A stretch of 64,000 nucleotides of DNA from Prorocentrum cordatum (Eukaryota): contig CAUYUJ010000076.1 of the NCBI GenBank assembly GCA_963575745.1, positions 1 through 64,000 of the forward strand. The letters are read 5' to 3'. This document shows, piece by piece, positions 25,632 to 57,302 of the stretch; the first letter of the stretch is position 1; each line of letters opens with the position of its first letter. A program made the translations under genes and the position numbers. The notes beneath the pieces are model-generated. The model had not been told where the DNA came from. It did no database searches and saw only the letters and a list, made by a program, of their open reading frames with translations.

Positions 25632-28600
25632 GCGGGGCCGCCTGCGATCCGCCTCGGCATCGAGTCGATTCGACGCGCCGGCTGGCCCCGAGATTTTTGA
25701 TTCGATTGGCTCCGATTCGATTCGATTCCGAGTCGATTCCGATCCGATTTCACGATTCGACTGGATCCGATTTTTGATCCGATTCGAATGGATCCGAGTC
25801 GATTCCGATCCGATCCGATTTCACGATTTGATCCGGATCGGGCCTGCCAGGTACCCGTCGCTGTGGGCCTTCCTGTCGCACGCGGACGAGTCGTACCACA
25901 CGGACCTCAGGGGAGGAAGGGGTACCGATCCTGGTACCTTTCTGTCGCTTTCGCCTTTTGGGGCATCCTGGCAGGCCCTCGTCGCCACGGCTGAATTCGC
26001 CTCGACATCCCGGTCAGAACGCACCCTGGGAGAGGTCCGGGGAGTGGTGGTATCGATGTTCTAGATCACCGCCAGGGGCGCCGCGAAAATAATCGCGCTT
26101 CGCGCGTCGCGGCCAGAGCCGCCAAGCTGGCCTTCTCCAGGGCAGCGCGGGGTCGCGAAGACAACCTCGCGTCGCGCATCGCGCCCCGCTGTGCGCGCGG
26201 TTAGGTGACCTAGGTGTTTCTTCGGCAACTACCATTAAGTCGGGCATGTCCCTCCACAGGAACAATATCAAAAAATAGTCAGGGGACGATTTTTCGATTA
26301 TGTTTGGATTTTTATGGGGCATTGCTTGAGCATTTTTTGGTTATCGTCAAACATCCGGCTGTAGGAGGGCATGCCCGACCCAACGCTGGGGCTTGAGGGG
26401 CCATAACGTGATCGTTTTTTATTCATTGTCTTGCCGATCGGCGCGGGCCCTCGAGCCCCCCCCCTCCCCTTGGCTGTTTCTGGCGCCTGCTTCGAGCAGG
26501 CGGGAGTCTCCCCCATGATGCACGCACTGCTCCAAACAGCCGCACCAAGCAGGGGTCCAGAGCCAGACCCCCCCTGGCCCTCCCCTTCCCCCCCTTCCGC
26601 TCAACGTCGAAACGCCCAACATAAAAGAACGTTCACCGCGGCGCACGGCGGCACGCCCAGACCCCCCCGACGCCGTGCTCTTTGCGCACCACCTCGGCCC
26701 CCAGGGGTCTCGACCCTCGGTTTCTCCTCCCGAGTCGTTCGAGGATCCTCAGGACGTGTGTTGGCCCAGTGTGTGCTTCCATCACGGCGGGAGGGCTTTT
26801 TGCTATTTTTGGCCTCTGGACGCCCTTGCCGGGCCCGGGGACCGTGATACAACTTCTCAGGATGAGCAAGCCGTCCCAGGAAATGGGTCGAGACCTTTGG
26901 GGGTCGGCATTCTGATCAAATCTTGACCCCGTTCAACCCAACCAGTCGATCATCACATCGCCTTCGTCGCAGTGAAGGGCCTCAGTTGTCAAACGCACGA
27001 AGGCGCTGACACACGTTCTGAGATCATCGAGTCGTTTTGTTGACGGTCCCGGGGCCCAGGAAGAGCCCCCAGAGGCTGAAACCAGCGACCTCCCCCCCCG
27101 CCGTGATTTTCTGACAGCGCGAGGGGTGCTCTGCGCCCCATGGTTTAGCTCTTCGTAAGCTCTTCTGCGTCCCAGGGCTTGGGGGGGCGCTGACCATGCG
27201 CGACGTTGGAGTCCTCCTGAGTCCTTTCTGGACGCTCCCGGGGCGCGGGAAGGGCCCCCAGGGGCCGAAAATAGCGCCCCCCCCCCGCCGTGATTTTCTC
27301 ACAGCGCGAGGGGGTCTGGGCAGACGGTTCTCCGTCGAGGCCCTCGCCCGCTCCCCCCCCCCCAGGCGCGGGTTGCAAACTGCACCCTCTGCAGACTACA
27401 CCCTCTGGAGAGCCGCCGCGTTCTGCTCCCCCAGCGGGGAGTGAGTGAGGAGGAGGAGGAGGAGGAGGGGGAGGAGGAGGAGGAGGAGGAGGAGGAGGAG
27501 GAGGAGGAGGAGGAGGAGGAGGAGGAGGAGGAGGGAGGAGGAGGAGGAGCAGCAGCAGGACCTGCCGTTTGGCGACGTGCGGGCGGCGCTCCTCACGTGG
27601 TACCGGGTGAGCCGGCGGAGGCTGCCGTGGCGGGGCGACCTTCCTCCGTTGGGTGGGCACATGCGAGCCCTACCCCACCTCCCCAGGATCTCTGCGGGGG
27701 GGAGGTGGGGCTCACTCCGCTCGGGAGATCCCGAACGAAGTGAAGCCCACCTCCCCCCCTAGAGATCCTGGGGAGTTGGGGCGCAGGGCTCGCACGTGCC
27801 CTCCCGCCCGTACACCGGGTCGACCGCGGGCATGGCCAGGGCGGGCGCGGAGGCGAGGGCCCCCGCGCCGCCGCGGGGTGCTGACGCCGGTGGCCGCAGA
27901 AGACAAATCATGGAAGAACCGGCGGCGAAGTCCGAGGCCTGCCTTCGCGGATCCACGATTCGAGCAATGCGATGGGCGGCGGGGGCAACTAGGGCTTGGA
28001 GTTCGTCGAGCGTGTGGCGAGGTCCGAATCCTCTGCCCCCGCCGCCCATCGATTCAAGAGGAGCGATGGTTGGTGTGGGTAGGGTTCGGATGTCGCCACC
28101 TAACACATCTACACTGTCGGTGTTCCGCGCAGATTTCTTGGATCGGCGATGGGACACCTCTCCGTGGCGCGCGGAGCGCGCCAGGGGCGGCGCCAGAGGC
28201 GCCGCCAGGGGGGTCCAGCGCCAGTCGAAGGGATTCGCACGGAGCTCCGAAAGTGTATGTTTATGCCGCTTTTTCATCCTCTAGGTGCGCCGGCCAACCC
28301 CGTGTCTCCTTACGGCGTGTGGGTGTCGGAGGTCATGTGCCAGCAAACGCGCGTGGAGGCAGTCATCCCGTATTGGCTCGCGTGGATGGAGGCGTTCCCC
28401 ACGGTGCAGGCGCTCGCCGAGGCGACCGAGGAGCAGGTCAACGCCAGGTGGGCAGGGCTGGGTTTCTACCGCCGCGCGCGCATGCTCCACAACGGCAGCA
28501 AGCAGGTGCTTTTGGATGCGTCTCCTAGATTCCGCATCGGCGCTGGTATATCTGTGGTCGAAAACAGGGCTAATCCGGCATACTCCAGTTCAATTCCGCT

Positions 28601-29433
28601 TAATTCTGTTCGAACTGGCTTAATCCGGCTTGAGCCTGGGTTTAATCAGAGCTCATCACGGCTCAAAGGCCACAGTAGTCAGGCACGAGCGTTCAGAGGC
28701 CACTCCAGCTGGCGCCTACGGATACGTCTGTGGGCCTCCATGGTGCGACCTCTTGCGTTGTATGTGCTCGAGGTTGCACCTTTGTCATCTGGCGTGATTG
28801 CTCCTTGATCATGGGAACAAGCAGTGACACAAGCAAAAAAAACCGGGAGGTCCGCGCGGATTGCTCGGATCGGCCCTGGACACCCCCTCCCCAGCGCGCG
28901 GGGAGCGCGCCAGGGGCGGCGAGGGAGGCGCCGCTCGGGGGCCCCAGCGCCGATCCGAGAGATCCGCGCGGACCTCCGAGTTTTTATGTTTATGCCACTT
29001 TTTGTTCCCCTACTGTGTCACTGTTTGTTCTCCTGTGGTCGGTCTTAGGGGTCCCTCGTCGCTCCTGCGAAGACCTCCCAAGAGAGCTTTTTCTGCTTGT
29101 GTCACTGGTTTGTTCTCCTGTGGTCGGTCTTGGTGGTCCTTCGTCGCTCCTGCAAGAGGCCTCCCGAGAGAGCTGCCTCCCCTGAAGGTGCTGGGCGAGT
29201 TCCGCGGGGAGCTGCCCCGCACCCTCGAGGAGCTCCGGAGCCTGAGGGGCGTGGGCCCCTACACCGCCGGAGCGCGGGGGGAGCGGCAACCGGCCACGCA
29301 CAGAGGGGGGCGTGGGGGAGGGGGGGGCTTCTTGGGAGCTGTGGGCAAAGAACGCGCAGGCTGTGGAGCAAGAACACACAGTGTGTTCTTCCAACGCGCA
29401 GTGTTTTTTTCCACAGACTGTTTTTGCTTTTGC

Positions 29434-29503
<70 letters not shown>

Positions 29504-32500
29504 TCTTTTGTTTCCACTGTTTTTTGTGTGTTCTTTCCACAGTGTGGTGTTTTTGTTCCACAGACCTCGCTTCTTGGAAGGCGCCAGCCTTGTCTGTAGA
29601 TGTAAAGACAGCGCCTTCTAAGAAGCAGCCTTCTTCTAAGAAGCCTTCCCCCCTCCACTTACCCCCCACTGCGCGCCGCCAAAAACACGACGATCACGAC
29701 CAAAATGCCGCGGGATTTTGGTGACGCCGACCTTGGTCGAAGAAAGAGACAAGGCCATAAACATCAACTTTTGGCGCTCCGCGCAGATTTCTTGGGTCCG
29801 CGCTGGGCCCTGCCAGGCTGCGCCTCGGGCGCCGCCCTGGGCGCGCTCCGCGCGCCAGGGCTGGGGGTCCATCGCGGATTCAAGAAATCCGCGCGGAGCG
29901 CCAAAAGTTTATGTCCATGGCGTGTTTTCTTCTTCTAACCTTGGTCATGGCCCATGCTCGGAGGATGAAAAGGTACCCATACGGCTACCCTTCGCCCGTC
30001 CCGTTTCCCCTTTTTTCGCCCCCCCGGGAGGCCCGCGTCGCCGACGTTGGATTCGCCTCGAAATTCTGGACAGCACGCCCCCCGAGGAGAGGTCCAGGGA
30101 GTATAGCGTGATCGGTACCTTGTGATTTCCCCGCGCGCCGCCGTCGTCGATCCGTGAGGATGGTCGGCGAATTGGCGATGACCAAGGTGGACGATGGCCA
30201 AGCTCCGTCTTGGCTCGGCATCACCCGCGGATGCTTCTACTGTGTGTGTGTGTGTCGCCCCCCTACGGGCGACGCGGGCGCTCAGAGAAGTCTTACAGTA
30301 CCTATTCGGTGGCGGGCGCCTTCTGGCCATACCGCCGGGGCAGCGATACGCTCTAAGATGCTTGTGCTGTATGGTCGATTCGGTGCTCGCACTGTCAATG
30401 CTCTGCTCTCCTATAGGGCTTTGCAGCGTCGTCCGCCCCTTGCTTCTGCATGCCCGAGCCCCGTAGCTGCCTGCACGCCCTCCTGTGTTCAGCTGCCTTC
30501 TTGCTCCTATCGACATTGCGCAGGCCTGACGAAAGCTTGAGAGGTCCCTCCCACTGTGTGCTTGTGCTGTATGTTCGGTTCGGACGTGCGCTTCCAAGGG
30601 GGTCGCCTAGTACTACTACGGTCCCGCTTATGATTAAGAAACCTCCACCCGAAAAGCTGGCCCAGCGTTTCTTAACCAACTTGCCGGAAAACTGGACTTA
30701 AGCGGATAGGTAGCCTTGGATCCAAAATGATGAATAACGTACGTTCCTGGCTCCAAAAGCTGGCCCAGCGTTTCCTGAAGAAACTTCTTAAAAGCTGGCC
30801 CATCCTCCCCCCTCCCTCCCTCCTCCCCCATCCTCCCCCCTCCTCCTCCTCCTCCTCCTCCTCCTCCTCCTCCTCCTCCTCCTCCTCCTCGTAATCACAC
30901 TTTTGACTGTCTGTCCTTCTGCCCTCCCACTGGTCGTGGTCACCGCTTTCTTTCCCCTCCAGGAGCCGTCGCCTCCATCTGCTTCGGGGAGCCGGCGCCC
31001 ATCGTGGACGGCAACGTCCTGCGCGTGCTCGCCCGGCTGTGCGCCGTCGCTGCGCACCCGCAGCAGCCGGCCTTCTGCGCCGAGGGCGGCCGCGGGCGAA
31101 GAGTGCATCCGTATCCCCAGAAGGCCCTCGAGGCACGAGAACTCATGACTAGGGGGCCGCCTGCGAACCCTACCCCTACACCCCACGATTTCTGAGGGGG
31201 AGGGTGGGGTTCACTTCGTTCGGGAGCTCTCGAGCGAAGTGAACCCCACCCTCCCCCTCAGAAGTCGTGGGGGGTAGGGGTAGGGTTCACAGGCGGCCCG
31301 GCCCCCTAATGACGGGCGCTTCTCCGCCAGGTTTCGGCCTCGGGGGGCCCCCGAATTGCGGGGCCTCGGGGCTGTCCACTGGACGGCTCAGGAGGAAGAG
31401 CCGGTCCCTGGGAAGGGGTCGAGACCTCCAGGCGGCGACGCCAAGGAAGAAGGCATGGCGTTGGGGGGATCTGGGTCTGCGGCCTCGCGGGCCAGGGGCC
31501 CCCGGGATCCGCGACCCCGCGGACACGGGGAGTTTTTTTTTCCGCGGAGGCCCCGCGCAGAGCGTCTCCGTGCGACCGCGTATCCGCGGGACCGCGCCTC
31601 AGAATTCAGGCCGCGAGGGCGCGGATACGGTCGAGGCCCATGCCAAGAAACCCCTTGCTTGCCTCCAGTGTGCCCTGGGTTTCTTGGGTTTCGATGGTTT
31701 TGCCATGAAAAGCGTGACGTTCCCACACAATCCATGGACGTCCTGGGGTCTCAGGGTTGGGTTTCTTGTGGAAGGTTTCTTGTGGACTGGCCCTCACTGT
31801 ACGGATGTGATCGCCGCTCGCGAGGCAGGTTGGCGTGGCAGCTGGCCGAGAAGCTCGTCAAGGCCTGCGATCGCCGGCGAACCCTGCGGCCAGGAACTCT
31901 GGCTTGGCGTGTCGCGGAGCCAGTTTTTTCGGGTAGCACTTCGTGGAAGCCTTTGCGTATCACCGATTTTTTTTTTTTCGAGTACACTATGGTGCGCTAG
32001 CGTCTGGCAGTCGATGAGGGAGCGCCAGTTTGGCGTCATTGGCGCCGGTTCGCGTCGATTCGCGTCGGTTAGCGTCGATTCGCAAGAGCCAGCAAGATGG
32101 CACGGGAGGCTCCCGTGAGTTGTCACCGAAGATTCTGGCCCACCACGTTTTGGCGCGACACGCTATCCACGTCCCCATTGCCAGGCGTCAGCGTCCCGAG
32201 CCTTTCCCCGCCTCCCGCCCCGCGGAGCGGAGCGACACGCTATCCGCTCGCAGGGCACAGCGTGTCGCCGGGGCCGCCGCCGCGGCACGCTCAGCAAGAG
32301 TTCCCGACCGTACCCCTCCTCGGAGGCGTGCCCGTGGGGGAAGGCGCAAAGGGGCGGGCCTTCTCAGAAGGCGCGGATATTTCTTCCGGCCTTCTGAGCA
32401 TTTCTCTCGGAGCCTTCTCCGAAGCCAGATGGGGGCTTCCGAGAAGCTCCGCCGCCTTTGAGAAGGCCTGCCCCCTCTGCCTTCCACCCCTAGGCGCACC

Positions 32501-35500
32501 GCCGACCTCGGTGGTCCAGTCGACGCCGGGGCATCGGAGACCCCCGCTGCGTTCCCAGACCCTCTCGCGACGCGACAAAAAATCAAGACACGGGAGGCTT
32601 TCCGCTACAGTGGAGACCCATGCCAAAAAACACCATGCTTTCCTCCAGGGTGCCCTGGGTTTCCTGGGTTTCGGTGGTTTTGCCATGCAAGGCGCGACGT
32701 CCCCACCAAAAATCCAGGGACGTCCGGGGGTCTCAGGGTTGGGTTTCTTGTTGAAGGTTTCTTGTGGTCGGGCCCCCACTGCAGGTTCGGCCTCTGGGGG
32801 CCCTTACCGGCCGGGCCTCTGGACCGTCGAAGAAAGCGGCCAGGGAGGAAGAGCGGGTCCCAGGGCCAGCGGCACCGTAACGGGTACCCATCGGTCGTTG
32901 AAAGTAGGTATGTTTGGATTCCCAGATTTCAATCTATTTTGAGCGCCTTCCTAATTCAATGCTCGAGTGGCTTCACCTTTCCCGTCCTCCTCAGGGGGCG
33001 GACGGAACCCAATCTGCTTTCAACCCATCCCTACTTCATGTTTCGACCTGCTTCTTCCGACCGACAGGTGCTCCTTAACGGGTGCTTTCTGGAGATTCGC
33101 CGGAAGTTGCCACTTGAGGGCCTCTCTCTGGCACTGCAGCGTTTGCCCACATCGGGGAGGGTGGGGTTCGCCGGGTCACTGGCCAACGTGCCCGTTCGCG
33201 GAGTCCCCGTGAGAGGGGCGCGGGCAGGGAAGGGGTCCATACCTCGGGGGGGCCACGCCGTGCAGGAACAAAAACACCACGTCGAGGATCCGGGGCGCTC
33301 GCCCGGCTGCAGCCATCACCCTCACGCGCGGAGCCCCAGCCGGCCTCTCAGAAGCCCGACTCGCAGGGTGTGCAGTCAGCCCGCATAGCAAGGATGGGCA
33401 ACCTTCCCAAGGGCACCCTTGCATCCTCGTCCCCTCGGTCCATCCTTGGCTGGAGGGTTTCTCCGAAGGGCTTAGGCGACTCCTCCCCCTCCTCCTCCTC
33501 CTCCTCCTCTGCCTACTCCTCCTCCTCTTTCTCTTTCTCCTCCTCCTCCTCCTCCTCCTCCCCCTCCTCCTCCTCCTCCTCCTCCTCCTCCTCCTCCTCC
33601 TCCGCCTGCTCCTCCTCCTCCTAGGGGTCGCCTACGGCCACGGGCGAAACACCAGGCACCTCGCCCCCTCGGTCCACCCTTGGCCGCCTCCGTGGGCCGC
33701 GCCCCGCCCGCAGAGCCTCGGAGTGGGCGCCCAGGGCCCTTGCGCCCTCCCCTCGCGCAGCCCTCTGCTGCGGGCCGGCGGCAGGGCTTCTGCCCCAGAC
33801 CCCGACGTCGTGCCTTCTGACCGGCGTGCAGCCCCGAAGAGGTCTTTCCGGGGGGGGAAAGAAACAAACACACAGACACAACCGATCTCGTCGACTCCCA
33901 GGACCATATGTGAGAAGATATGGGAACGGGGGGAAAGACGAACGCCCAGAACACCTGGGAAAATATGGGGCATCCTGTTGTTTGTGTCTGTTTGTTTGTG
34001 TGTCCGAGGGCCCTTCCGTCTTGACCGCTTCCGTTCGGGGACTCCGCTTTCCACCCCGAGCCCCGGGGGCCGGCGGCTCCTCTTCCCGGGGGCCGCTTCC
34101 TGGGGACCGGCTTCCTTTCGTGTGCGGGCAATCTTTATACCCAGATCCAGTGCGTCTTGGACTTTCTTGGGGGGGGCACCGCAAGGCCGAGGCGCGTTGG
34201 ATATGGGCAACAATCTGGCCTCTACAAGGTTAAGTCGGGCCTGTTCCTCTACAGGAGGAACATTCAAAAATAGAAAAATAGTCTGTGGACGATCCTTTGA
34301 CAATTTCCGAATATTTTTTTGAATATTTCGTCCAAACTATGCCTGTATGGGGGACACGCCCGACCCAACTATAGGAGCCAGATTCTTATCCATGTCCAGT
34401 GCGTCTCGCGGTTCTGGGGAAGGGGGCCCGAAGCTCCCAGCTGCGGTGGATACGGACACAAGCCTTGCCCGCATCCTGGTCCTGGGGCCCGGTGAGGGCC
34501 CTCAGAGGCCGCGAACGGCCGAGCACGCTCCGTCATGCCTCTCTCGTGACCCACTGGGGCCGGGGGTTCGCGGGTGGCTGCCGACGAGGCGGACGGCGGC
34601 GCCCACGCGGGGGAGCTGAACCAGGCGATCATGGAGCTGGGCGCGACGCTGTGCGCGCCGAGCGGCACCGGGGCGGACCCGCGCGACCCCCTGGGGCCGT
34701 TCTACAAGTCCACCAAGCCAGGGGCGGCGAGAGGGGGGGGGGGATAGCAGGGGAAGCAAGAATGACATAAACATCAAAGCTCGGAGGTCCGCGCGGACGT
34801 CCGAGTTTTTCTGTTCATGCCATTCTTCGCTCTCCTAGATAGGCTCAGGGGGAGACCCGGAGGCCCTGGCGTCGCAATTTTCCAGGACGGGCGATTTTTG
34901 CTGGTTTCAGGCCCCAGGACCGTCACGGATGGGCGCGGCTCGAAAAATGCGGAAGAAATATCCATCTCCTTGCGGCAAGTCCCGACATTGTGCCAGCCCA
35001 GCATTGTGGGTGGTGACAATTCGAGGGGACACAGGAGGCCGTCACGTGTGGCACCTCGTGTCTCCAGGCTTGGGAGAGCCGTGATGAGTATGATGATGAT
35101 TCTCTCATGGCCTTCGGCCCATCCCGCTACCGTGCCTGGGTTGTGGGTCAGAGTTCTCAGGGGTGCTTCTTCGGGTCTTTTCGGAGCGTCCTCGGGGGCC
35201 TCTTGGGAGCCTTTTGGGGGCCTCCTGGGGGCCTCTTGGGGGCCTCTTGGGGCCTCCTGGGGGCCTCTTTGGTCTCTTGGGCGCCTCTTTGGGCCCTCTT
35301 GAGGCCTCCTGGGGGCCCCTCGGGGCCGAGGGCTCGAAATGTCCGTTCGGGTTCTGGGCCTCTTCTTGGGCCGTCTTGGGCGCCTCTTGGGCCGTCTTGG
35401 GGCACTCTTCGGGGCCTCTGGGGCCGCCTCGTGGGCCGTCTTGGAGCGTCGGGACGCCGTGGAGGCGGGGTCGCCCCAATCCTGCAGAAACCAAAACTGG

Positions 35501-36595
35501 AAGTCAATTATTTTTGCTTCATGGGGCTCTCTCAGGAGGCCTCCTGGGGCGTTTGGGAGGCTCCTGGGGTCGTCTTGGGCCATCTTGGACGTCTTGGAGC
35601 GATCTTTCAGCGGCTCGGGCCCCTCTTGGGCCGTCTGCGGGGCCTCGTGGGTGCCTCCTGGACTTTGGAGCCGTCTTGGGCCTGAGAAAGTCATGCGCGA
35701 GGACGCCCCAGGCACGCGGGAAGCGCCGAGAGATCTGGCAATGTCGGGTCTGGGCCCCTGAATTACTCGTCAGGATTGAAGACTGAGGCTCAAGGGATTA
35801 GGCAAAGGATCTGAGGACACGCCCACTCCGTGCCCAGACGCACGGTGGCGGACGAGGATGATTGGGGTGATGACGATGGTGATGATGATGGTGATGATAA
35901 TGATGATCTGCTGATGATGATGATGGTGATGATGTTGATGACGATGGTGATGATGATGATGCTGATGCTGATGATGAGGCTGATGATGGTGATGGTGGTG
36001 GTGATGATGCTGATGATGACGATGAGGATTATGATGGTGATGATGCTGCTTATGATGATGATGATGATGCCGATGCTGGTGCTGATGTTGATGCTGATGA
36101 TGAATATTAGGATGATGATGGTGATGCTGATTGTGACGATGATGATGGTGATGATGATGACGATGATGATGCTGCTGATGTTGATGCTGATGATGCTGCT
36201 GATGATGATTATTATGATGATGATGCTGATGCTGATGCCGATGCTGCCGATGATGAGGATGATGATGCTGCTGATGATGATGACGATGATGACGATGCTG
36301 ATGTTAATGATGATGCTTATGACGACGATGATAACTGTGGTGGTGGTGATGGTGTTTATGGTGGTGGTGATGTATATGATGATGCTGACGAGGCTGCTGA
36401 TGATGATGATGCTACTGATGATGATGAAGAGGATGGGGATGGGGATTATGATTAGGATGAGGATGCTAATGCTGATGCTGATCATGCTGATGTTCATGAT
36501 GCTGATGGCGATGCTGCTGCTGAGGGTGATGCTGTTGATGCTGCTGATGATGATGCTGCCGGTGATGATGATGATGCTGATGATGATGATGTCGC

Positions 36596-36649
<54 letters not shown>

Positions 36650-37003
36650 GGCTGCTGATGATGACGCTGACGCTGATGCAGATTCTGTTGCTGCTGCTGA
36701 TGATGGCGATGCTGATTATACTGATGATGGTGATGATGCTGCTGCTGATGATGCTGCTGATGATGATGGTGATGTTGCCGATGCTGATGATGCTGAAGAT
36801 GATGGTGATGGTGATGCTGATGGTGATGAGCATTATGCTGATGCTGATGATGATGATGATTCTTATGCTGATGCTGATTATACTAATGATGATGCTGTTG
36901 CTGCTTATGATGCTGATGCTGATGCTGATGATGATGATGATGATGATGCTGCTGCTGATGCTGATGCTGACGCTGCTGCTGATGCTGATGATGATGACGA
37001 CGG

Positions 37004-37059
<56 letters not shown>

Positions 37060-37282
37060 GTGATAATGACGATGACTTTGATGCTGATGATGCTGCTGAT
37101 GATGATTATTATGATGACGATGCTGATGCTGATGCTGATGCTGCCGATGATGAGGATGATGATGATGCTGCTGATGATGATGACGATGCTGATGTTAATG
37201 ATGATGCTTATGACGACGATGATAACTGTGGTGGTGGTGATGGTGTTTATGGTGGTGGTGATGGATATGATGATGCTGATGC

Positions 37283-37320
<38 letters not shown>

Positions 37321-37471
37321 CTACTGATGATGATGAAGAGGATGGGGATGGGGATTATGATTAGGATGAGGATGCTAATGCTGATGCTGATCATGCTGAT
37401 GTTCATGATGCTGATGGCGATGCTGCTGCTGAGGGTGATGCTGTTGATGCTGCTGATGATGATGCTGCCGG

Positions 37472-37557
<86 letters not shown>

Positions 37558-37558
37558 C

Positions 37559-37590
<32 letters not shown>

Positions 37591-37594
37591 TCGC

Positions 37595-37636
<42 letters not shown>

Positions 37637-38229
37637 GGCTGCTGATGATGACGCTGACGCTGACGCTGATTCTGTTGCTGCTGCTGATGATGACGATGCT
37701 GATTCTACTGATGATGGTGATGATGCTGCTGTTGATGATGCTCCTGATGATGATGATGGTGATGTTGCCGATGCTGATGATGCTGACGATGATGGTGATG
37801 GTGATGCTGATGGTGATGAGCATTATGCTGATGCTGATGATGCTAATGATGATGCTGTTGCTGCTTATGATGCTGATGATGTTGCTGATGATGATGCTGC
37901 TGCTGATGCTGATGCTGACGCTGCTGCTGATGATGATGATGACGACGGGGATGCTGCTGCTGAGGGTGATGCTGTTGATGCTGCTGATGATGATGCTGAT
38001 GATGATGATGATGATGATGGTGATAATGACGATGACTTTGATGTTGCTGATGCTGTTGCTGATGATTATGATGAGGGTGATGATGCTGATGATGATGGTG
38101 CTGGCGATGACGATGCTGATGCTGATGGTGCTGCTGCTTAGGATGATGATGCTGATGACGATGATGCTGACGACGATGATGCTGATGATGGTGCTGATTG
38201 ATGCTGATGCTGATGATGGTTATGGTGAC

Positions 38230-38260
<31 letters not shown>

Positions 38261-38612
38261 CCTCTGCTGATGATGGTGATGTTGATGATGATGTTGCTGA
38301 TGATGATGGTGCTGCTGCTGATGCTGATGCTGATGGTGATGATGCTGATGATGCTGATGCTGCAACTGCTGATGCTGGTGCTGATGCTGATGCTGATGCT
38401 GCTGCTGCTGATGATGATACTGATGATGCTGATGATGCTGATGCTGCTGCTGCTGATAAGACGATGATGATGAGGATGATGATGGTGGTGGTGATGATGC
38501 TGACGATGCTGATGCTGCTGCTGATGCTGATGATGTTGATGATGATGATGCAGATGATGATGATGCTGATGATGATGCTGATGATGATGATTATGCTGCT
38601 GCTGCTGCTGAA

Positions 38613-38687
<75 letters not shown>

Positions 38688-41600
38688 CATGACGATGACG
38701 ATGATGATGATGATGACGAGGAGGAGGAGGAGGAGGAGGAAACTCGTTTGGGCCGTCTCGGGGCTCTCCTGGCCTCCTGTGAGACAGTCTTGGGGGTCCC
38801 TTGGGGCCCTATTGGGCCGTCTTGGAGCCCTCTTTCGCCGGCTTGGGGCTCATTTGGGCCTTCTTGGGGCTCTCTTGGCCGTATGGTGGGTGTCTTGGGG
38901 CCGTCGTGGGGCCGTCTTGGCGCCGTCTTGGGCCGTCGAAGGACCTTCTAAGGCCGTCTTGGGTCCCACGGGAGGCCCTCTTGGGCCGTCGTGAGGCCGT
39001 CTTGGATACCTCTTGGGCCATCGTGGAGTCCTCTCGGGCTGTGATGAGCTCACGGCAGCCCGAAACGCGAGAATGCGAAAATCATTTGACAGTCCAACGG
39101 ACTTCAATGATTTTGGCTTCTTCTGGCCCTGTTGGAGGTCCCCTTGTGGCCATTTTGGGCCCTTTTGGAGGCATCTAGGGCCGTCTTCAATCAATATTCA
39201 GCCGCCTTTGGGCCATCTTGGGCCGTCTTCGAGTCATCTTGGGCCATCTTGGTGTCTTTGGTTGCCTGCACGGGCCGTCCTGTAAGCTCGTGAAGCAGAT
39301 CCATAGTTTTTCATGAGGGCTCGTGGCTTAGGAGGTCCTGGAGCGCTTGGGAGCAGCGCCTGGGAATGTGGGGAGTGCACGATCCTGAGCAGGTGCGCGT
39401 GAGATGAGGGTCTAGGAGTTAGCAGCCATGCGGGAAGTGCACAATCCTCGAGCGGGCGCGCATGTCAAGAGGGTTCAGGCATTAGCTGCCATGCGGGAGT
39501 TGCTCCAACCTCGAGTGGGCACGCACTGAAGAGGGGTTCAGGCATGTGCTGCCATGTGGGAAGTGCACCATCCTCGAGTGGGCACGCATGGAAGAGGGGG
39601 TTAGGCATTAGCTGCCATGCTGGAAGTGTACCATCCTCGAGCGGGCACGCGGGAGGTGGCCTCGGAAAGGAGGGGCGATACATGCAGCAGTCGGCGTCGA
39701 GAGGGGGTGGTCCCGTATGAGAATCCGAGAAGCCCTGCCAGACAGCCCTTGGCATTCCTCCACGCTTCAACGTGCCAGGGGGGCACGGTGGCGGATTGGG
39801 TCCAGGGCTCTGGTAGAGCTGTTCTGTTGTTGCCCAATCTTGTATTCTTCCCCAGGTAGGCTTGCCGAATGGGTTCTTAGTTTGTTAAAATTTAGTGCCT
39901 CTGATTCTTACGTTGCCCGTTGCTTGGAGGTTCCCCGGGTTTCTTGGGTTCCTTGGGTTCCTCGGGTTCCTCGGGTTCCCCGGGGTCTTCGGGTTCCTCG
40001 GGTTCCTCGGGTTCCTCGGGTTCTTCCTCGGGTTCCTCAGGTTCTTCCTCGGGTTTCCCTTGGGTTCCTCGGGGTTCTCGGTTTCCTCGGGTTCTTCCTC
40101 GGGTTCCCCGGGTTCCCCGGGTTCCCCGGGTTCCCTGGGTTTCTGAGGTTCCTCGGGTCCTGCGAATTTCTTCGGGTTCCCTGGGGTTCCTCGGGTTCCC
40201 CGGGGTCCTCGGGTTTTCCTCGGGCTCCCCGGGTTCCGCGGGTTCCTCAGGCGATGCCGAGCGATGCCGAGCGATGCCGAGCGCTGCCGAGCAGTGCCGA
40301 GCGGCGCCGAGCAGCGCCGAGCGCTGCGCCCGTGCAGAGCGGAGGCGCTCCCCTCACCGGGGGGTCTCGCCGGGCTCCTGCCGCGACGTCGGCTGCCAGG
40401 GGTGGGCCGTCGGCCGTCGGCCGCGCGCTCTCCTCGCCGAATCGGGGCCTGCGTGCCCCGGCCGTTTCCCCGGAGCGTGCGGCGTCGCCGTCGGGGGCCT
40501 GGCTCGCCCGTCTGCCGGCGCGGGGCAGTCGTCGTCGGTTCCAGGCCAATGTTCGCCACGGAGGATCGGGGATCGAGGAGGATCGAGGATCGAGGGGGGC
40601 CTCGCTGCGTCTTGAGGCTGTCGGGAGGAAAGTCCTGGAGGATCGAGGAGCATCGAGCATCGAGGACCGAGGGGGGGCCTTCTTTGCACATAGGCGCTGG
40701 CGCAGTTTTTGGCTTCCCTGGGCCCTCCGCGAGGCGTGGGACTGCCAGGGAACGACTGGGGATGAGAGCTGGTCCCAGAGAGAAGCCCCAGAATGCAGGT
40801 CCCGTTTCCCTCGGGACCCGTTCCCTCCCCCTCCTCCGCCTCCTCCTCCGCCTCCTCCTCCCTCCTCCTCCTCTCTCCTCCCTTCTCCCTCCTCCCTTCT
40901 CCCTCCTCCCTCCTCCTCTCTCCTCCCTCCTCTCTCCTCCCTCCTCCCTCCTCCTCCTCCTCCTCCTCCTCCTCCTCCTCCTCTTCCTCCTTTTCCTCCT
41001 CCTCCTCCTCCTCCTCCTCCTCCTCCTCCTCCTCTTCCTCCCCCCCGACGTCATGATTCTTTCATGACGTCGCCCCCCAGAGGTCTGGACCGGCTTCGCT
41101 TGCCGGGGACCAGCGTTTCATCCCGAGACGTTCTCTGACAGTCCCTGGGCCCAGTGAGGGCCCCTGGAGGCCGGAAATGGGCAAGAACCTCCCGTCATGT
41201 TGTTCTCACGGCGCGAGGGGGCTTGGGTTTCTTTCATGCCAAGCTGCCCCCTCTCCCCTCCCCCCCCTGAGCCTGTCCCTTAGGTGTTCGATCATGGACG
41301 CTTGTTTTGCCGCAGCCATCCAGCTTCCGCTCCGAACACCGCAGGGAACCGCAGCAGAGCGCCGGAAGCCGCCGAAGTCCGACAGAACACCGCCGGAGGC
41401 CGCCGGAAAGCGTCCGGGGAGGCCGCCGAAGGCCGCCAACGGCGGCCCAGGAGCGAGGGGTGACGAGGCTGCCCCTGGTCGAGCACGCAGTGCCCCCCGC
41501 CCCGCCTGTCGGTGCCCCTCGCCCAGATCGGCGCCGACGCCCTGCAGGCCCGGAGGGACGGGGCGCTCGAGGCGCTGCTGGGCGCCGCGGGCCACGGGGT

Positions 41601-44600
41601 CTTCTCCTGCCCCGCCCGGGAGGAGAACAGAACGGCATCTCCGCAGAAGCAGATCGTATTTTCGGGGGTGGACAGGCCTCCTACCCTGACGCGTCGATTT
41701 AAGGAATTGGCCGTTTTCGGTTCGCGGGAGGGCGTCGCGGCCGTCATTTTTGCGGGTCCAGGTCCGTCGGTTTCGGTCCTGGGCCGTTTTCGCTAAGGGG
41801 AGGTTTACTAAAGGGAGGTTTGTCCACCGCCGAAGTCTACCACGGAAGCTCCGAACCAGAATCCAGAAATCGGTGGTTCAGTCTTGAGCGTTGGCTGCGG
41901 ATGCGGAGTTCATTCTGCACCCAGCCGCGCTTCATGCGGCATCGAGTGTGCTGGCATCCGACGACGCCTCGCTGCCGACAGACGTTGCGGCGCCTCGGCG
42001 TCTGAAACAAATGAGTAAACCACGGAAGATCCCAGTTTTCTTTGGACGTGCGTCGGCGAATACTGCCCACTACCGTTCAATAGCGCCAAGCAGCGCCCTG
42101 TGGCGCCGAACAGCAATCAAGTAGCGCCCAACAGCGACAAATGGCGCCCACTATAACGCCATGCGATGAGAGGTGCATCATGTCCGCTCCGTGCGCGAGT
42201 GGCGGGCTATTGGGCGCCATGGTCGGGGTTGGACAGACCTCCTACCCTGACACGTCGATTGAGGAATTGGCCGTTCTCGGTTTGCGAGAGGGCGTCGCGG
42301 CCGTCATTTTTGCGGGTCCGACGGTTTCGGTCCCAGGCCGTTTTCACTAAGGGGAGGTCTACTAAATGGAGGTTTGTCCACCGCCGACATGGGGACGACC
42401 ACACGCTTCCGTGCGTTGCTTTCCGAGCATGGGCCCGCAGATCCGGGCGCTGCCGTCTTCTTCACACCGCGTGCCCTTCCGCCCAGCTCGGGCCCCGGGA
42501 GCAGCCCAGATCGCCTCGCCTCGGACCATGCAGCAGAGAAAGGTGGGGTCCAAGGCTCTCTGGTCGCCTTTTTTGGGTCGGATTGACGTGTTGGAGATGG
42601 CACGCGAGCAAACAAGAGCGAACTGTCTTAAACCGATTGTTGTTCCCTACCTAGGCTCTGCCTAGAAGGGTTCTTACTTTATTGCTTAAAGGGCCGGGCA
42701 GTGTTCCCCGCCCCGGGCGGTTCCCCCAGGATCCGCCCCGCGGTTCCCCCAGTGACGTTCCCTTAGCTTCGCGTTGCTTATCTCATCTTAGCTTAGCCTA
42801 GCTTAGCTTAGCTTAGCTTAGCTTAGCTTAGCTTAGCCTAGCCTAGCTTAGGTTAGCTTAGCTTAGCTCAGCTCAGCTCAGCTTAGCTTAGCGCAGCGCA
42901 GCATTAGCATAGCATAGCATAGCATAGCATATCATAGCATATCATAGCATCGCGTAGCATATCATAGCATAGCGCAGCATAGCATAGCGCAGCAAAACAT
43001 AGCATAGCACAGCAACTCATATTATATCATACCATAGCGCAGCATATCATAGCACAGCATACTATAGCACAGCACAGCATAGCACAGCACATCATACCAT
43101 ATCATAACATATCATAGCATATCATATCATAGCATATCATAGCGCATCATATCATATCATATCATATCATATCATATCATATCATATCATATAATATCAT
43201 ATCATATCATATCATAGCGCAACATAGCAAATCATATCACATCATAGCGCATCATATCATATCATAGCATTTCACAGCATAACATAACATATCATAGCAT
43301 AGCGCAGTATAGCACGTCATAACATAGCCTAACCTATAATAGCATAGCGCAGCATAACATTGCATATCATATCATAGCGCAGCATAGCATAGCATAGCAT
43401 AGCATAGCATATCATAGCCTTAGATGTAGATGCAGCTGTAGGTGTAGATGTAGGTGTAAAAGTAGATGTAGATGTGAGTCTCGCTCTTGATGTTGATGTA
43501 GATGTAGATGCAGGTGTAGATGTAAATGTAGCTGTCGGTGTAGATGTAGATGTTGCGTTCCTAAATGCTCCAACTCCTAGGTAGGGTCGCACTTGGATAA
43601 TTGTCGTTGTTGAACTCTCACCACTGAAGACAAAGTGTTGTTGATCCCACCCGCGCGGGTTTCTCGGAGCGGCGCTGGGCCTCTCCTGGCGGCTGCGCCC
43701 CGGGCGCCGCCCCGGGCGCCGCCCTGTGCGCGCCCGGGGAGAGGGGGCCCCAGCGCCGGGTCCAGGAGGAATTGAGCCGGGCACGTGCCTTTCCAGGGAG
43801 AAAGCAGTCAACAAAATAGTCAGGGGACGATTTTTTTGTTTTGTTTGTTTGTTTTTTTGGTTTGTTGTCTGTTTGTTTGTTTGTTTGCTTGTTTGTTGTT
43901 GTGACAGTGTTGGAATCTTTGTTGTTGGTATTTTGTTTTTTCGTCCAAAATTCGACTGTAGGGGGACATGCCCGACGTGAAAGAAAAATCCCTGCGGTCC
44001 TCCGAAAGGTCCCTAAGATCCGAAATTGCAACGAACATGCAACATCGCAAACAATAAAAACGCGACCAGAGCCTTGGAGCCCACCTTTCTGCTGCATTGT
44101 CCGGGGCCCGGAACTGGGCGGAAACGCGCGGACCTCCGACACTTTTTGCTTGCCCATCGGTCGCTGAAAGTCGGCATCTGTGCGCTCCCGGATTCCCCAC
44201 CTGCCCTGGGCGCCTTCCTGCCTCGGTCGTCGAGCGCTTTCCCCTTCTCCTCCTCCTGGCAGCGGGCTGGCGGGGATCCGATCGACCGTCGCCGCCTCTC
44301 TTTAACGGGCGAAGAACGGTATAAAATAAACTTTTGCGCCGTCGGGGGCGCCTGTCCCTGGGCGGCTGGAAAGTTTATACCCCTACGGTGCCACCGTAAG
44401 GGTATAAACTTTCCAGCTGCCCTGGGACAGGCGCCCCCGACAGCGAACAAGTTTATCTTATACCGTTCTTCGCCCGTTAATTTCGGCTCCACGCCTCCGC
44501 CCACCTCTGCCGGCCGCTGGGGATATGCAGTCCTTCCTCCTCCCGCCAGCGTGCGCCGCCGGGGCGGGGGCCTACCTGGAGGGGCTGCGCGCGGCGGGCA

Positions 44601-47600
44601 CCGAGGAGCCGGGCTCGAGCGGAACGGTGCCGTGGCGATCTCGTGGGCCGTCCTCGCTCCGAGTCTGCGCCGCAGCAAGGTCTCGGAACGAGCGCAGCAC
44701 GAGGGAAGGCGAACGCCACGGCAAGGGGAAGCACTGCGTAGCACAGCTGCCCTGGTGCGCTCGTGCTGAAGCGCAGCACGTGCTGTGCTCCGGACGTCTC
44801 TCACGCACGTGTTGGCCCACGTTTTGGTGAACGTACCGCGCCAGACCTGCACCCATCAGGAATCGCAAGAACAAACACATCAACGTTCATGTACTCCAGC
44901 TTTCGTTCAAGAGAGTCGGATAGTCTGGACTGGACCCTGGGCGTTCTCTTGGAGCTTGTTTCTCCGTAGAGTGTTCGTATGTCTGGACCTGGGCTACGGT
45001 TTCAAGAAACGCTTGGCGTGACGCCCATTTTCTTGGGCTGCAAGACGCCACGGGCTGCGTGCGTGCAGTGGAGGCCCGTGCCAAGCAACGCCCTGCTTGC
45101 CTCCAGACTCGGCCTTGCCGTGGAGAGCGCGACGCCCCCAGGGCAAGTGCAAACTCCAGCAGGGAAAGTTCATCTTGCCGGGGCCCCGCAGGGTGCCCAC
45201 GGCAAGTCGCCCAGGGGGTTTCCTTGCTCCGCGCCCCTTGCCGTGGAAAGCGTGACGCCCCCAGGGCGGGAAAGCGCGACGCCCCCAGGGGAGCGCTGGG
45301 CCCCCCGCCCCCTGGCAAGGGACGCCCCGGGGTCTCCACGTGGGGTTTCCCCGTGGGAGGCCTCGTGCGGCCTGGCCTGCCGCGGTGCCGCGCCTCGGGG
45401 GGCGGCCGCGCCCCCCCCGAGGCCCGAGAGCCCCGCTCCCGAGGAGGCCGCCGCCGCCCAGGCGCACCTGCTCCTGCCGCTGCCGCCGCCCCGGAAGGCC
45501 CGGCGCGAGGATCGGCCACACGCCAGGCTTGGCATCGCTCGGACGTGTGCATGTTTCCTTCGACGAGGACCATTGAGGAGCATCGTTGACCATTTGGCGA
45601 AAAAGCCACGCACGAAACCGAAAGAAGCACAAGGACTGGACGTCCGAGCGATGGCCAGCAGGGGGGAACCTCGGAGGTGGACAGGCCTCCTACCCTGTCA
45701 CGTCGACTAGCGACTTGGCCGTTTTCGGTTTGCGGGAGGGCGTCGCGGCCGTCATTTTTGCGGGTCCAGGTCTGTCGGTTTCGGTCCCAGGCCGTTTTCA
45801 CCAAAGGGAGGTTTACTAAAGTGAGGTTTCTCCACCGCCGAGAACCCTTCGCCGGAGCGACCTTTGGTGCGGGCCCACCAGGGGCCCCCTGATGTCTCGG
45901 GGGCGGCAAAGAGGGGGTGATGACTGGGGGGGGTGGATATCACGGCGGGGCCATGGTATTTCCCTAGATCTCATGGCGCCTCTTCTTGCTTCATTGCGTC
46001 CCTGGCCCCCCCGCTGGGCCGCGCACATGCCGCCGGTCATGATTTGCACCCGCCCCCTCTTGGACACCCCCCTCTTGGCCGCTCCCGAATTTCATCGGGG
46101 CTCAGGAGACGGGGGTCAATGCAAACGGGGGTCAGCCAGGGCGCCGGGTCTTGCAGGATCCTGCACGGCCAGGGTCGCGCTGGCCTGGGTTTGGGTGCAG
46201 GATCCAGCAGGATCCTGCAGAGCCCGTGGTGCATTGACCCGGCTTTGGGTGCGGGATCCTGCAGGATCCTGCAAGGCCTAACTGACCCGGCTCTGGATTG
46301 ATCCGGGTCAGCAGATCCCCGATTGCAGAGGTGGACATCGAAGAACCAACAAAAAACGCAATCATACACTTTTGGCGCTCCGCGCAGATTTCTTGGATCG
46401 GCGTCTGGTCCCTCTGGGCGGCGCTTCGGGCGCCGTCCCTGGCGCGCTCCGCGCGCCAGAGAGGGTGGTCCAGCGCAGATCCAAGAAATCCGCGCGGAGC
46501 GCCAAAAGGTCTATGCTTTTGGCGTTTTTCCTTCTCTGGAAAAGGTATCCATACTGCTACCCTTCTCCCGTTGGAGGCCCTCGTCTTCACCGCTGGATTC
46601 GCCTTGAAATCCTGGTCAGAACGCGCCCCGGGAGAGGTCCGGGGAGTAGCGGTATCGGTACCTGTTGGTTTCCCCATGATTGCCGAGCGCGGTGTGGAAG
46701 TAGCGTCCTGCACGGTTGTGGTTCCGGGGCGGGGACTTTTCCATAACCACTGCCTGGGGGATCGATCTTCGCGGACCTCCATAGGCGGTGGATATGGATG
46801 TATTCGGGCCCCCGGCGGTCGAAATATATGCACGTCCACCGCCCGCTGGGGTACTAGGCCGCCGGTTCCCAGGCGGTGGATACGGATAAGTCCGCGTCTC
46901 GCAGCGATTGGTCCCCCCCGCGGCCCCCGAGAAAGCCGCGCACCAAGGGTCGTTCTTGCCCGGGGCCGCTCCTGCGTGTGGCCAAGAGGAGCGGCTGGTG
47001 GTGCTCGCGCTCCGCCGGGAGCCCGTGCCGGGAGAGCAGGCGGAAGCGGCACGGGCACGGCTCGGAGTCCGAGGAGGGAGAGGCATTCCAGATTCCGCAA
47101 TAAGAGGGGGGTGGTCTGGTTTTTTTGGGGGCTGATTGGAGCTGTCTTTGAGGGTTCCAGGGGGCCTGGGCAAACGGCCGCCCTTTCATGGCTAGTCTGG
47201 GGGGGTCTAACATGGCTCGTCTGGGAGGGTTGTGCCCCCCTTCCCTTTGATTGCGTAATCTGGAGTGCCATCACCGCTGCCCTTGCCCCGTTTTCATCTG
47301 CTTCGGGCCTCCTGGGAGGCCCTCGTCGCCATCGCCAGATTCGCCTCGAGATTCTGGTCAGAACGCGCTTCAGGAGAGGGCCGGGGAGAAGCGGTAGATG
47401 GGCACCTTGCGGTTCCCCCACGGGGGGTGCCGGGCCCGTGCGGAGGACGTCCACAGACCTGCTCGAGTCGTAAAGGATCCGGGCGGGAGGGTTTTGGCCC
47501 TTGTCGGTCTCTGGGGGCCCTCGCCGGGCCCCCGTATTGAAAAAGTCATGACGTCGCATGTTTGGGTCTGTGTGCTCAGTCTTCGTCCAGGCTTTTACTC

Positions 47601-55909: not shown

Positions 55910-57302
55910 TGTTCTTCCTCCTCCTCCCCCCTCCCCCCTCTTCTCCTCCTCCTCCCCTCCTCCTCCTCCTCCTCCTCCTCCTCCTCCTCCTCCTCCTCCT
56001 CCTCCTCCTCCTCCTCCTCCCCCCACGTTTTGCTATTGTCGCAGGCCTCCCAGGTCGGAGTAGATGGGGTCGGAGAGGATCGCGCCGCATCGCCAGTGCA
56101 TCGGCGATGCGGCTCGATGTGGAGCCAGATTTTTTCCACGCCGACGTCGCCACTGCAGCGCCGACGTCGCCGATGCATCGCCGATGCATGGCCTCCAACC
56201 CAGACCCCCGACGTGTTGATTTTTTCACAACGTCGACCCCCAGAGTTCTCGACCCCTTCCACGAGACCGGTTTTTCATCCTCAGTCGTTTTTTGACGGCC
56301 CCGGGGCCAGGTCAGGGCCCCCCCCGGAGGCCGAGTTAGTAGCGAAACCCTCCTCACGTCGTGTTTTTTTCCCAGCGCGAGGGGCCCTGGGACCCCCATC
56401 CACGCTGGCCCCTGTGCGGCTTCCGCTCTCCCCCTCCTCTCGTGCGACCCCCCCCGCGAGGACCCGGGCCCCGAGGCCCGGGGCGCCGCGGCGAGTGCGC
56501 TGCTGCGCGAGCTGGGCGCGGAGGAGGGCCTCTCCGGCCGGGAGTCGCTGCCAGGTGCGGGCAGGAGTCGTTTCCATATGCGTTGCGTCTTGGAGTTCCA
56601 GGCTCTCCTTCTCCAGGAGCCAGAGGCGCAGTGGGTATGGATAAAAACGTCGGGCCCATAGAGGCTAGATTTTCATGCATATTTATATCCACTGCGCCTC
56701 GGCCTTTTGGCACCCCTTCCCAGAAGCTCCAAGACGCAGCGGATATGGATATAAATCTTGCCCGCACCAGGGCCCCTGGAGCACGTCTTCTCGCACGTGC
56801 GGCGCTCGGAGGAGGAAAAGGTACCCATACCGCTACCCATGGCCCCGTTTTCGCCTCCTCGGGCGCCCTCGTCGCCTCTGCCGGATTTTTGCCTCGAGAT
56901 CCTGGCCCGAGCGCAGCCCGGGAGAGGTCCAGGGAGTGGCGGTATCGGTACCTTCCTGCGGGCCTACAGGCACATCATCCCCCGGAGGTTCCCAGGGGGG
57001 TCCTCTTGCCGAAGAAGAACACGCGGCCTGAGCATAAACTTTAAGAGGTTCCCAGGGGGGGTCCTCTTGCGGAAGAAGACCACGCGGCCTAAGCATCAAT
57101 TTTACGAGGGCCGCGCGGTTTTCTTTGATCTGCGCCGGGCCCCCTCTGGCGGCGCCTCCGGCGCCGCCCCTCGGCGCCCAGCGCCGATCCAGGACATCCG
57201 CGCGGACCTAAGTTTGTGTATTTTTTTGTTTGATTGGTGTATATATATATATATATGGTGTGTATATATATTTATATATATATGGTATACATATATATAT
57301 AT

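Follow-up and report, generated by a model that had tools for sequence, protein, structure and literature searches.

The window considered here, the whole 64,000-nucleotide stretch at positions 1 to 64,000 of contig CAUYUJ010000076.1 (assembly GCA_963575745.1, forward strand) of Prorocentrum cordatum, carries a gene that sequence comparison identifies as an orthologue of the adenine DNA glycosylase MutY/MUTYH, the enzyme that removes adenine (A) opposite 8-oxoguanine (OG). The canonical ligand set of its [4Fe-4S] cluster, Cys-X6-Cys-X2-Cys-X5-Cys, is not present in the window gene, where the first Cys alone remains. An earlier note, written from the letters of the window, had described a C-x7-D-x2-D-P-x4-Y motif at 34652..34717 in place of the cluster ligands, and the codons match this description exactly. 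The plus-strand frame opening at 34550 (translation PTGAGGSRVAADEADGGAHAGELNQAIMELGATLCAPSGTGADPRDPLGPFYKSTKPGAARGGGG) reads ...GELNQAIMELGATLCAPSGTGADPRDPLGPFYKSTK, and 34652-34717 on the plus strand encodes C-APSGTGA-D-PR-D-PLGPF-Y-KSTK, immediately 3' of NQAIMELGATL. The replaced motif and its ligand positions are as follows.

34652-34705, plus strand: replaced cluster motif, with the Cys at 34652-34654 kept (translation, HMMER alignment and motif count)
34676-34678, plus strand: Asp on the Cys2 position
34685-34687, plus strand: Asp on the Cys3 position
34703-34705, plus strand: Tyr on the Cys4 position
34715-34717, plus strand: last exon codon, Lys

The nearly preserved spacing that the earlier note had claimed, with Asp, Asp and Tyr standing for three ligands, agrees with the HMMER alignment, which places these residues on Cys2, Cys3 and Cys4. 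When the full-length homologue P0007 was compared with PDB sequences by phmmer, its best match was human MUTYH (8fay, E 1.6e-54); its 'capsgtgideedplaalyr' lies against human 'ctpqrp-lcsqcpveslcr', with D, D and Y on the three Cys positions and a variant loop one residue longer than the human loop. No other exon supplying three Cys was found in the window. The sole in-frame, plus-strand C-x2-C-x5-C pattern after the exon (39367) was considered as such an exon and rejected: it sits in a 63-base tandem repeat and is also bypassed by the RNA junction described below, which lands at 41527, making it intronic. The repeat itself (39366-39650, 4.5 copies) translates to CG[EK]CTIL[SE]R.. units and forms an in-frame mimic of a C-x2-C-x5-C metal motif.

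RNA evidence was obtained by searching sequencing runs with 27500-34750, of which the runs hold 5-10% of the words, approximately the exon share of that stretch. Four runs from three studies (X4, X6, X1 and X7, X4 and X6 being polyA marine metatranscriptomes) were compared with 33650-35180, a section chosen to steer clear of long microsatellites. Each run yielded one contig (4/4; 898-1707 bases) that fits exactly 34587-34717 and then diverges from the window on both sides, the letters mismatching within the exon numbering 0 in X4, X6 and X1 and 2 in X7. The 30 letters 5' of the exon in RNA are those of window 31831-31860 and the 30 letters 3' of it those of 41527-41556, both unique in the window, and the sequence from 41527 reads IGADALQARR, as relatives show after ...ST[QKR]. 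The junctions 31860/34587 and 34717/41527 were placed by locating the loose ends of the RNA contigs in the window rather than from a directly reported joint. The whole replaced motif is present in the mature mRNA, and the gene is transcribed and spliced. Because the contigs of the four runs match the exon, RNA editing to Cys codons is not at work.

Among the observations that the earlier note had named as counting against it are transcripts that splice after the first Cys to an exon bearing the other three, and orthologues that keep the Cys motif while this copy is under relaxed selection. The contigs of the four runs include no transcript spliced after the first Cys; they cover the single exon at 34587-34717 whole and join 34717 to 41527. 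As for orthologues, the motif search across algal and protist MutY proteins that the note had proposed revealed a conserved clade that includes diatoms, and the orthologues share the replacement. A search with the exon peptide gave three metagenomic relatives, one of which (P0003) served as the query when 1.84 billion representatives were scanned with HMMER. The best 150 of the 19,362 matches at E<=0.001 were used, and these are eukaryote-type MUTYH of 400-860 residues. The 165 proteins sorted comprised 85 canonical four-Cys proteins, 48 variant proteins, 16 classed as 'other', 15 fragments without the NQxxME anchor and 1 truncated protein; among the 16 'other' are 2 variant proteins with a small insertion and 4 of a second Cys-less type, while the rest look truncated or like intron read-through. 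When the variant region of P0010 was the query in a word search, 163 proteins matched at E<=1e-6, and the best 120 of these added 114 further proteins, 113 of them variant and 1 with D-C-L for D-P-L. The few labelled rows among these best 120 of 163 matches are the only source of taxon names, and they read Nitzschia inconspicua, Thalassiosira exigua, Attheya, Pseudo-nitzschia multiseries (Psemu1), Corethron, MMETSP transcripts and one 'Alexandrium tamarense' scaffold. The variant clade includes diatoms, which are its named members. A protein atlas search returned generic eukaryotic MUTYH clusters alone, none of them with a structure.

The exact motif spacing recurs in 160/279 collected homologues, which is far beyond chance, and the clade consensus C-[AS]-P-x-G-[ST]-G-x-[DEH]-x2-D-P-L-x2-[FY]-Y-x-S-T is nearly invariant. 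The residue counts in the 160 proteins, by position relative to the first Cys, are given below.

Cys (0): 160/160
P+2: 160/160
G+4: 160/160
G+6: 160/160
+8: D 130, E 20, H 8, V 1, A 1 (of 160)
D+11: 160/160
P+12: 159/160
L+13: 159/160
+16: F 98, Y 48 (of 160)
Y+17: 155/160 (W 3)
S+19: 158/160
T+20: 137/160

Lys or Arg is conserved at +14 (116/160), +21 (106/160) and +24 (94/160). The window copy has the consensus residue at each tabulated position, near-invariant ones included, and is therefore not a relaxed copy. The Pfam families divide along the same line: EndIII_4Fe-2S (PF10576) was detected at E<=0.01 in 0/47 variant proteins versus 46/84 canonical ones, whereas HhH-GPD (PF00730) was found in 47/47 and 84/84, respectively, and PF00633 in 47/47 variant proteins.

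Two side observations concern the homologues. The second Cys-less MutY type (P0039, P0044, P0073 and P0096) keeps the first Cys only, in the pattern C-[TV]-P-x4-[LV]-P-x-x-L-x-P-F-F, and forms one group with a Shimodaira-Hasegawa-like approximate likelihood ratio test (SH-aLRT) value of 98. Six diatom-type homologues (P0014, P0016, P0020, P0038, P0202 and P0270) have 100-250 extra N-terminal residues with a hydrophobic, signal-peptide-like start, an extension that is absent from P0198 and P0207; organelle targeting of some diatom-type copies is possible on this sequence evidence.

The gene around the motif was rebuilt from homologues, using tblastn of the relatives from the P0003 search and 12 closer relatives against the window, with protein-guided exon borders. 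It spans more than 36 kb on the plus strand and has at least 13 exons, listed here with the evidence for each.

25849-25902, plus strand: first recognisable MutY exon, RYPSLWAFLSHADESYHT (tblastn; 3' end by protein-guided junction)
27559-27652, plus strand: exon DLPFGDVRAALLTWYRVSRRRLPWRGDLPPLG (tblastn; borders inferred)
28285-28505, plus strand: exon with the catalytic Glu, wedge Gln and wedge Tyr (tblastn, at most 85% identity to homologues; Pfam)
29188-29269, plus strand: helix-hairpin-helix (HhH) exon, LRGVGPYTAG (tblastn)
30963-31085, plus strand: exon VDGNVLRVLARLC, with the catalytic Asp, the Asn and the Arg of the Asp-Asn-Arg-Cys network (tblastn)
31825-31862, plus strand: short exon (G)RLAWQLAEKLVK, joined to the motif exon (RNA loose end and tblastn)
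34587-34717, plus strand: motif exon (K)ADGGAHAGELNQAIMELGATLC-APSGTGA-D-PR-D-PLGPF-Y-KSTK (RNA contigs, four runs; first two bases ambiguous with the upstream exon)
41527-41614, plus strand: next exon, IGADALQARRDGALEALLGAAGHGVFSCP(A) (start RNA-supported, end inferred; homologue match)
44550-44640, 3' end approximate, plus strand: exon (A)CAAGAGAYLEGLRAAGTEE... (acceptor after a pyrimidine tract; tblastn with 6/10 homologue queries)
45423-45515, plus strand: exon PESPAPEEAAAAQAHLLLPLPPPRKARREDR, with a clade-specific conserved His (tblastn with 9/10 queries, E 2.6e-9)
49733-49861, plus strand: exon of the C-terminal MutT/NUDIX-like domain, AWLLWRRAGAGLLAGQWEFP... (tblastn; Pfam)
56773-56808, plus strand: exon piece with the 8-oxoG-recognition FSH loop, PLEHVFSHVRRS (motif scan; tblastn with 9/10 queries)
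61709-61837, plus strand: probable further C-terminal exon, ...HVERALVPEGAALAASGAGAEFRRGERRLCWMS... (tblastn with 7/10 queries, E 4e-4, weak; the gene may extend beyond)

The residues listed as defining MutY include, besides the four cluster Cys, the catalytic Glu (Geobacillus (Gs) Glu43), Asp144, Asn146, wedge Gln48 and Tyr88, and Tyr126 (PMC11078426), and the window gene has every one on that list save Cys2, Cys3 and Cys4. Of these, the catalytic Glu and wedge Gln lie in VSEVMCQQTRV (28323-28355), the wedge Tyr in GLGFYRRAR (28455-28481), the HhH in LRGVGPYTAGA, including GPYT (29242-29274), the catalytic Asp and the Asn in VDGNV (from 31004, with VDGNVLR intact), and the FSH loop in EHVFSHVR (56779-56802); the catalytic Glu, catalytic Asp, HhH and FSH loop, which the earlier note had called intact, are thus all found in window exons. 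The catalytic and wedge columns (Glu, Asp, Asn, Gln, Tyr) are invariant across 135 aligned relatives. Pfam HhH-GPD (PF00730) matches window 28296-28517 at E 2.9e-16, its score of 60 bits lying well above the cut-off of 26.2. The MutT/NUDIX-like domain includes LLAGQWEFP (49775-49801); on the single exon fragment 49733-49861, NUDIX_4 scores E 0.0024 and 18 bits, under its cut-off of 35, while it reaches 45 bits in full-length P0007, where HhH-GPD, HHH and NUDIX_4 are all recognised, and matches 43/47 variant relatives.

The introns of the gene have features of their own. The RNA-supported intron 34718-41526 has non-standard borders, CC...AG, or GC...CA if shifted by one ambiguous G, and the inferred intron 41615-44549 has the same G|CC...CAG| pattern. 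Protein-guided exon ends (including donors 25903 and 29270, and 31086 and 31863) give two GA-AG, two GC-AG and two GT-AG introns, and G is the first exon base after AG in 5/6 introns. GA and GC donors are typical of dinoflagellates. A large part of the 6.8 kb intron is taken up by an imperfect (TGA)n microsatellite of 2.85 kb (35868-38716, 949 copies, 73% matches), and neighbouring introns contain several other tri- and pentanucleotide arrays.

A structure prediction, which the earlier note had suggested, was made with AlphaFold2 for the homologue P0007 using a 135-row alignment. The protein is predicted to fold like MUTYH (mean predicted local distance difference test (pLDDT) score 87.2, predicted template modelling score (pTM) 0.87), with confidence throughout the motif (pLDDT 83 for residues 251-260, 97 for 261-270, 98 for 271-280 and 97 for 281-290) and with two helices, 268-281 and 285-296, after it. 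Comparison with the PDB by Foldseek gave human MUTYH 8fay (E 1.4e-23, template modelling (TM) score normalised to the target 0.82) and Geobacillus MutY (0.81-0.87), while the match to MutYX (8uuc) had a TM score of 0.59 and a root-mean-square deviation of 16 A.

Clusterless MutYs are known from other lineages, as the earlier note had stated: PMC12631127 (NAR 2025) counts 46, found solely in Lactobacillales and in an anaerobic/microaerophilic clade that includes Entamoeba, and the explanations offered there are low oxygen or life without iron. The clusterless enzymes of Lactobacillus brevis and Entamoeba are active, and those of Lactobacillales keep the FSH loop, whereas the MutYX of the Entamoeba clade has a new C-terminal domain (PMC12631127). 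Among eukaryotes, a 2026 survey of MUTYH describes the Fe-S motif as kept in all sequences that it analysed (bioRxiv 10.64898/2026.05.27.728240). No description of a published algal clusterless MutY, or of this variant, was found in the literature searched, where subscription journals were mostly outside coverage.

The closest known relatives of the variant in sequence and fold are canonical eukaryotic MUTYHs (human 8fay, mouse 7ef8/7ef9), which share the order of HhH-GPD, interdomain connector and NUDIX-like domain, together with the catalytic Glu, Asp-Gly-Asn, the FSH loop and the first cluster Cys, and whose Zn linchpin is resembled by the N-terminal His and connector C-x2-C of the variant. 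However, the variant has Asp, Asp and Tyr for Cys2-4, a loop with one more residue that is Gly-rich rather than basic, and, in the P0007 model, two extra predicted helices after the motif (268-296). The Lactobacillales enzymes (Streptococcus pneumoniae, Lactobacillus brevis) likewise are without the cluster Cys ligands and keep the FSH-loop C-terminal domain (PMC12631127), but they are bacterial, while the variant clade is eukaryotic and its nearest relatives are eukaryote-type MUTYH. From the eukaryote-type best 150 relatives and the diatom names, the variant looks like a loss separate from that of Lactobacillales. With MutYX (Eggerthella sp., PDB 8uuc) it would share being an OG:A adenine glycosylase without [4Fe-4S]. 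In MutYX, however, an 'X' domain reads OG via Gln201/Arg209, often with a catalytic Glu for Asp (PMC12631127), whereas the variant keeps the FSH loop and the Asp; the window gene does not have the X-domain character, given that its FSH loop is present and the modelled fold lies nearer human MUTYH (0.82 vs 0.59). In the sense of PMC12631127, a clusterless MutY is one whose cluster ligands are gone and whose conventional OG-recognition domain is kept, and this describes the window gene. The variant is probably a third cluster-free MutY lineage, eukaryotic and algal, of the FSH-keeping type.

A second metal site bears on how the variant is understood. The Zn linchpin of human MUTYH is bound by His85/Cys332/Cys339/Cys342 and lies approximately 16 A from the cluster, and an H/x/C/C pattern of it occurs in stramenopiles, arthropods and slime moulds (bioRxiv 10.64898/2026.05.27.728240). 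An N-terminal H-x5-H, the connector C-x2-C and a His before '..FP' are each present in at least 90% of 47 variant proteins, and C-x2-C lies 39-94 residues past the first Cys in 155/160. In the window, exon 25849-25902 holds the H-x5-H (SHADESYH; the exon ends ...SHADESYHT), aligned with the part of human MUTYH that carries the His ligand of the Zn linchpin, and the ESYH His aligns with human 'ssyh' via P0007 'aayh' (phmmer). The connector C-x2-C of the window, C-P-A-C, arises only across the inferred exon junction 41614/44550, the position of the His before '..FP' is AHLLLPLP at 45462, and the first linchpin Cys of Cys-X6-Cys-X2-Cys is not evident in the window gene. On sequence, the H-x5-H/C-x2-C/His set resembles the Zn linchpin of MUTYH in a form richer in His. 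The five variant proteins that are without the connector C-x2-C (P0160, P0161, P0162, P0163 and P0006) all belong to the window's GC-rich subgroup, and some of them retain a single Cys, e.g., RAAC or SPVC.

The origin of the variant was examined in an unrooted tree of 135 proteins, a eukaryote-type set without bacterial sequences, built on 167 columns of the N-terminal domain that end before the motif; 29 proteins (fragments or unclassified) and 1 without a match were left out. Constraining all 47 variant rows to a single group raises the log-likelihood by 75.4 relative to the free quick tree (p-value of the approximately unbiased (AU) test, p-AU, 0.885). Adding the four second-type proteins to the variant group gives +75.96 (p-AU 0.887), so a common clade of the second Cys-less type with the main variant also passes the AU test. 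A single origin of the variant is favoured because the complex motif is shared.

The interpretation that is considered probable is that the window gene encodes a working OG:A adenine glycosylase without a cubane, belonging to a eukaryotic algal clade that has exchanged the [4Fe-4S] site for a fixed protein element. No cubane would be bound at the former cluster site; instead, the side chains of the Asp, Pro-Leu and Phe/Tyr-Tyr residues may fill the former cavity and hydrogen-bond within it, and the D-P-L...[FY]-Y element, together with the helices after it, would hold the helix of the catalytic Asp in place. The Gly-rich loop and the Lys/Arg at +14, +21 and +24 could make the contact with the DNA backbone in place of the basic Fe-S cluster loop. 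Cys198, the first cluster ligand of Geobacillus MutY, forms a bridge to Arg149, Asn146 and Asp144 (PMC12631127). The kept Cys would serve this Arg-Asn-Asp network in the variant, and its retention is proposed to follow from the hydrogen bond of the same Cys (Gs Cys198) to the Arg of the network, conserved here within VDGNVLR. The variant probably also retains a separate Zn 'linchpin'-like site (N-terminal H-x5-H and connector C-x2-C).

Several points weigh against this interpretation. All four old ligand positions hold near-invariant residues capable of binding metal, as a new metal site would, and AlphaFold confidence cannot separate a metal site from a packed core. The modelled protein, P0007, is approximately 65-70% identical to the window in the motif exon and is not the spliced protein of the window itself. 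The presumed intact full-length reading frame of the Prorocentrum cordatum gene includes exons beyond 41556 that are deduced from homologues. Finally, in the free quick tree the variant falls in three groups; this picture was given no weight, as the constrained tree is 75 log-likelihood units better and the free search is a poor optimum, and the support for a single origin goes as far as non-rejection by the AU test.

The metal-capable residues are the starting point for a different reading, in which the kept Cys, Asp/Glu/His+8, Asp+11 and Tyr+17 bind one Fe, Zn or Mn ion that does the same structural job. Residues able to act as ligands occupy all four positions (Cys 160/160, Asp/Glu/His 158/160, Asp 160/160, Tyr 155/160), and the old spacing is retained but for one extra residue. 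Nevertheless, such a mononuclear site seems unlikely. A Cys/Asp/Asp/Tyr ligand set is unusual for Zn, the +8 position tolerates Val or Ala in 2/160, and ligands spaced for a cubane would be expected to lie far apart for a single ion. Furthermore, in the known clusterless MutYs the loss is made up for by protein packing or altered helices and not by metal (PMC12631127).

Very unlikely is the persistence of an Fe-S cluster on rearranged ligands, in which the first Cys would be joined by the downstream C-x2-C and by a His or Cys elsewhere. The C-x2-C is indeed found in 155/160 variant proteins, and the His before '..FP' and the two N-terminal His are at least 90% conserved in the 47 examined, but many canonical eukaryotic relatives have the same C-x2-C downstream of an intact set of four Cys, and the 5/160 variant proteins that do not have it still carry the variant motif. 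The C-x2-C also fits the H/x/C/C of the Zn linchpin, at approximately 16 A from the cluster in human MUTYH (bioRxiv 10.64898/2026.05.27.728240). Least probable of the readings considered is that glycosylase function has been lost, with cluster loss as a consequence, leaving a relic that binds DNA or has a regulatory role. As this would allow, the loop (A-P-S-G-T-G-x) no longer has the basic residues found in the canonical Fe-S cluster loop; however, the catalytic and OG-recognition residues of MutY are all kept and invariant in the 135 aligned relatives, the motif is fixed although the clade is old and diverse, and spliced mRNA occurs in polyA libraries.

The replacement is a trait of the whole clade, including diatoms, and not an adaptation of Prorocentrum cordatum alone. 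By analogy with Lactobacillales (PMC12631127), an iron-sparing role is plausible and would place the variant among the candidate iron-sparing substitutions of phytoplankton, although the iron saved by cluster loss in a rare repair enzyme would be small. If the single-metal site were true, the MutY of diatoms and allied marine algae would use one iron atom, or none, instead of four, a saving in a DNA-repair enzyme of the main primary producers in the ocean. What the [4Fe-4S] cluster does in MutY/MUTYH has long been asked, given that the chemistry requires no redox step. A cluster-free reading, if true, would provide a natural MutY without a redox-active cluster in fully aerobic cells rich in reactive oxygen species, and thus a natural experiment on whether the cluster serves structure, DNA binding, allostery or redox signalling. 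A large, conserved and expressed clusterless lineage in oxygen-evolving marine algae, with the eukaryotic architecture and the FSH loop kept, would break the 'anaerobe' pattern, and its defined replacement motif could guide the engineering of cluster-free glycosylases.

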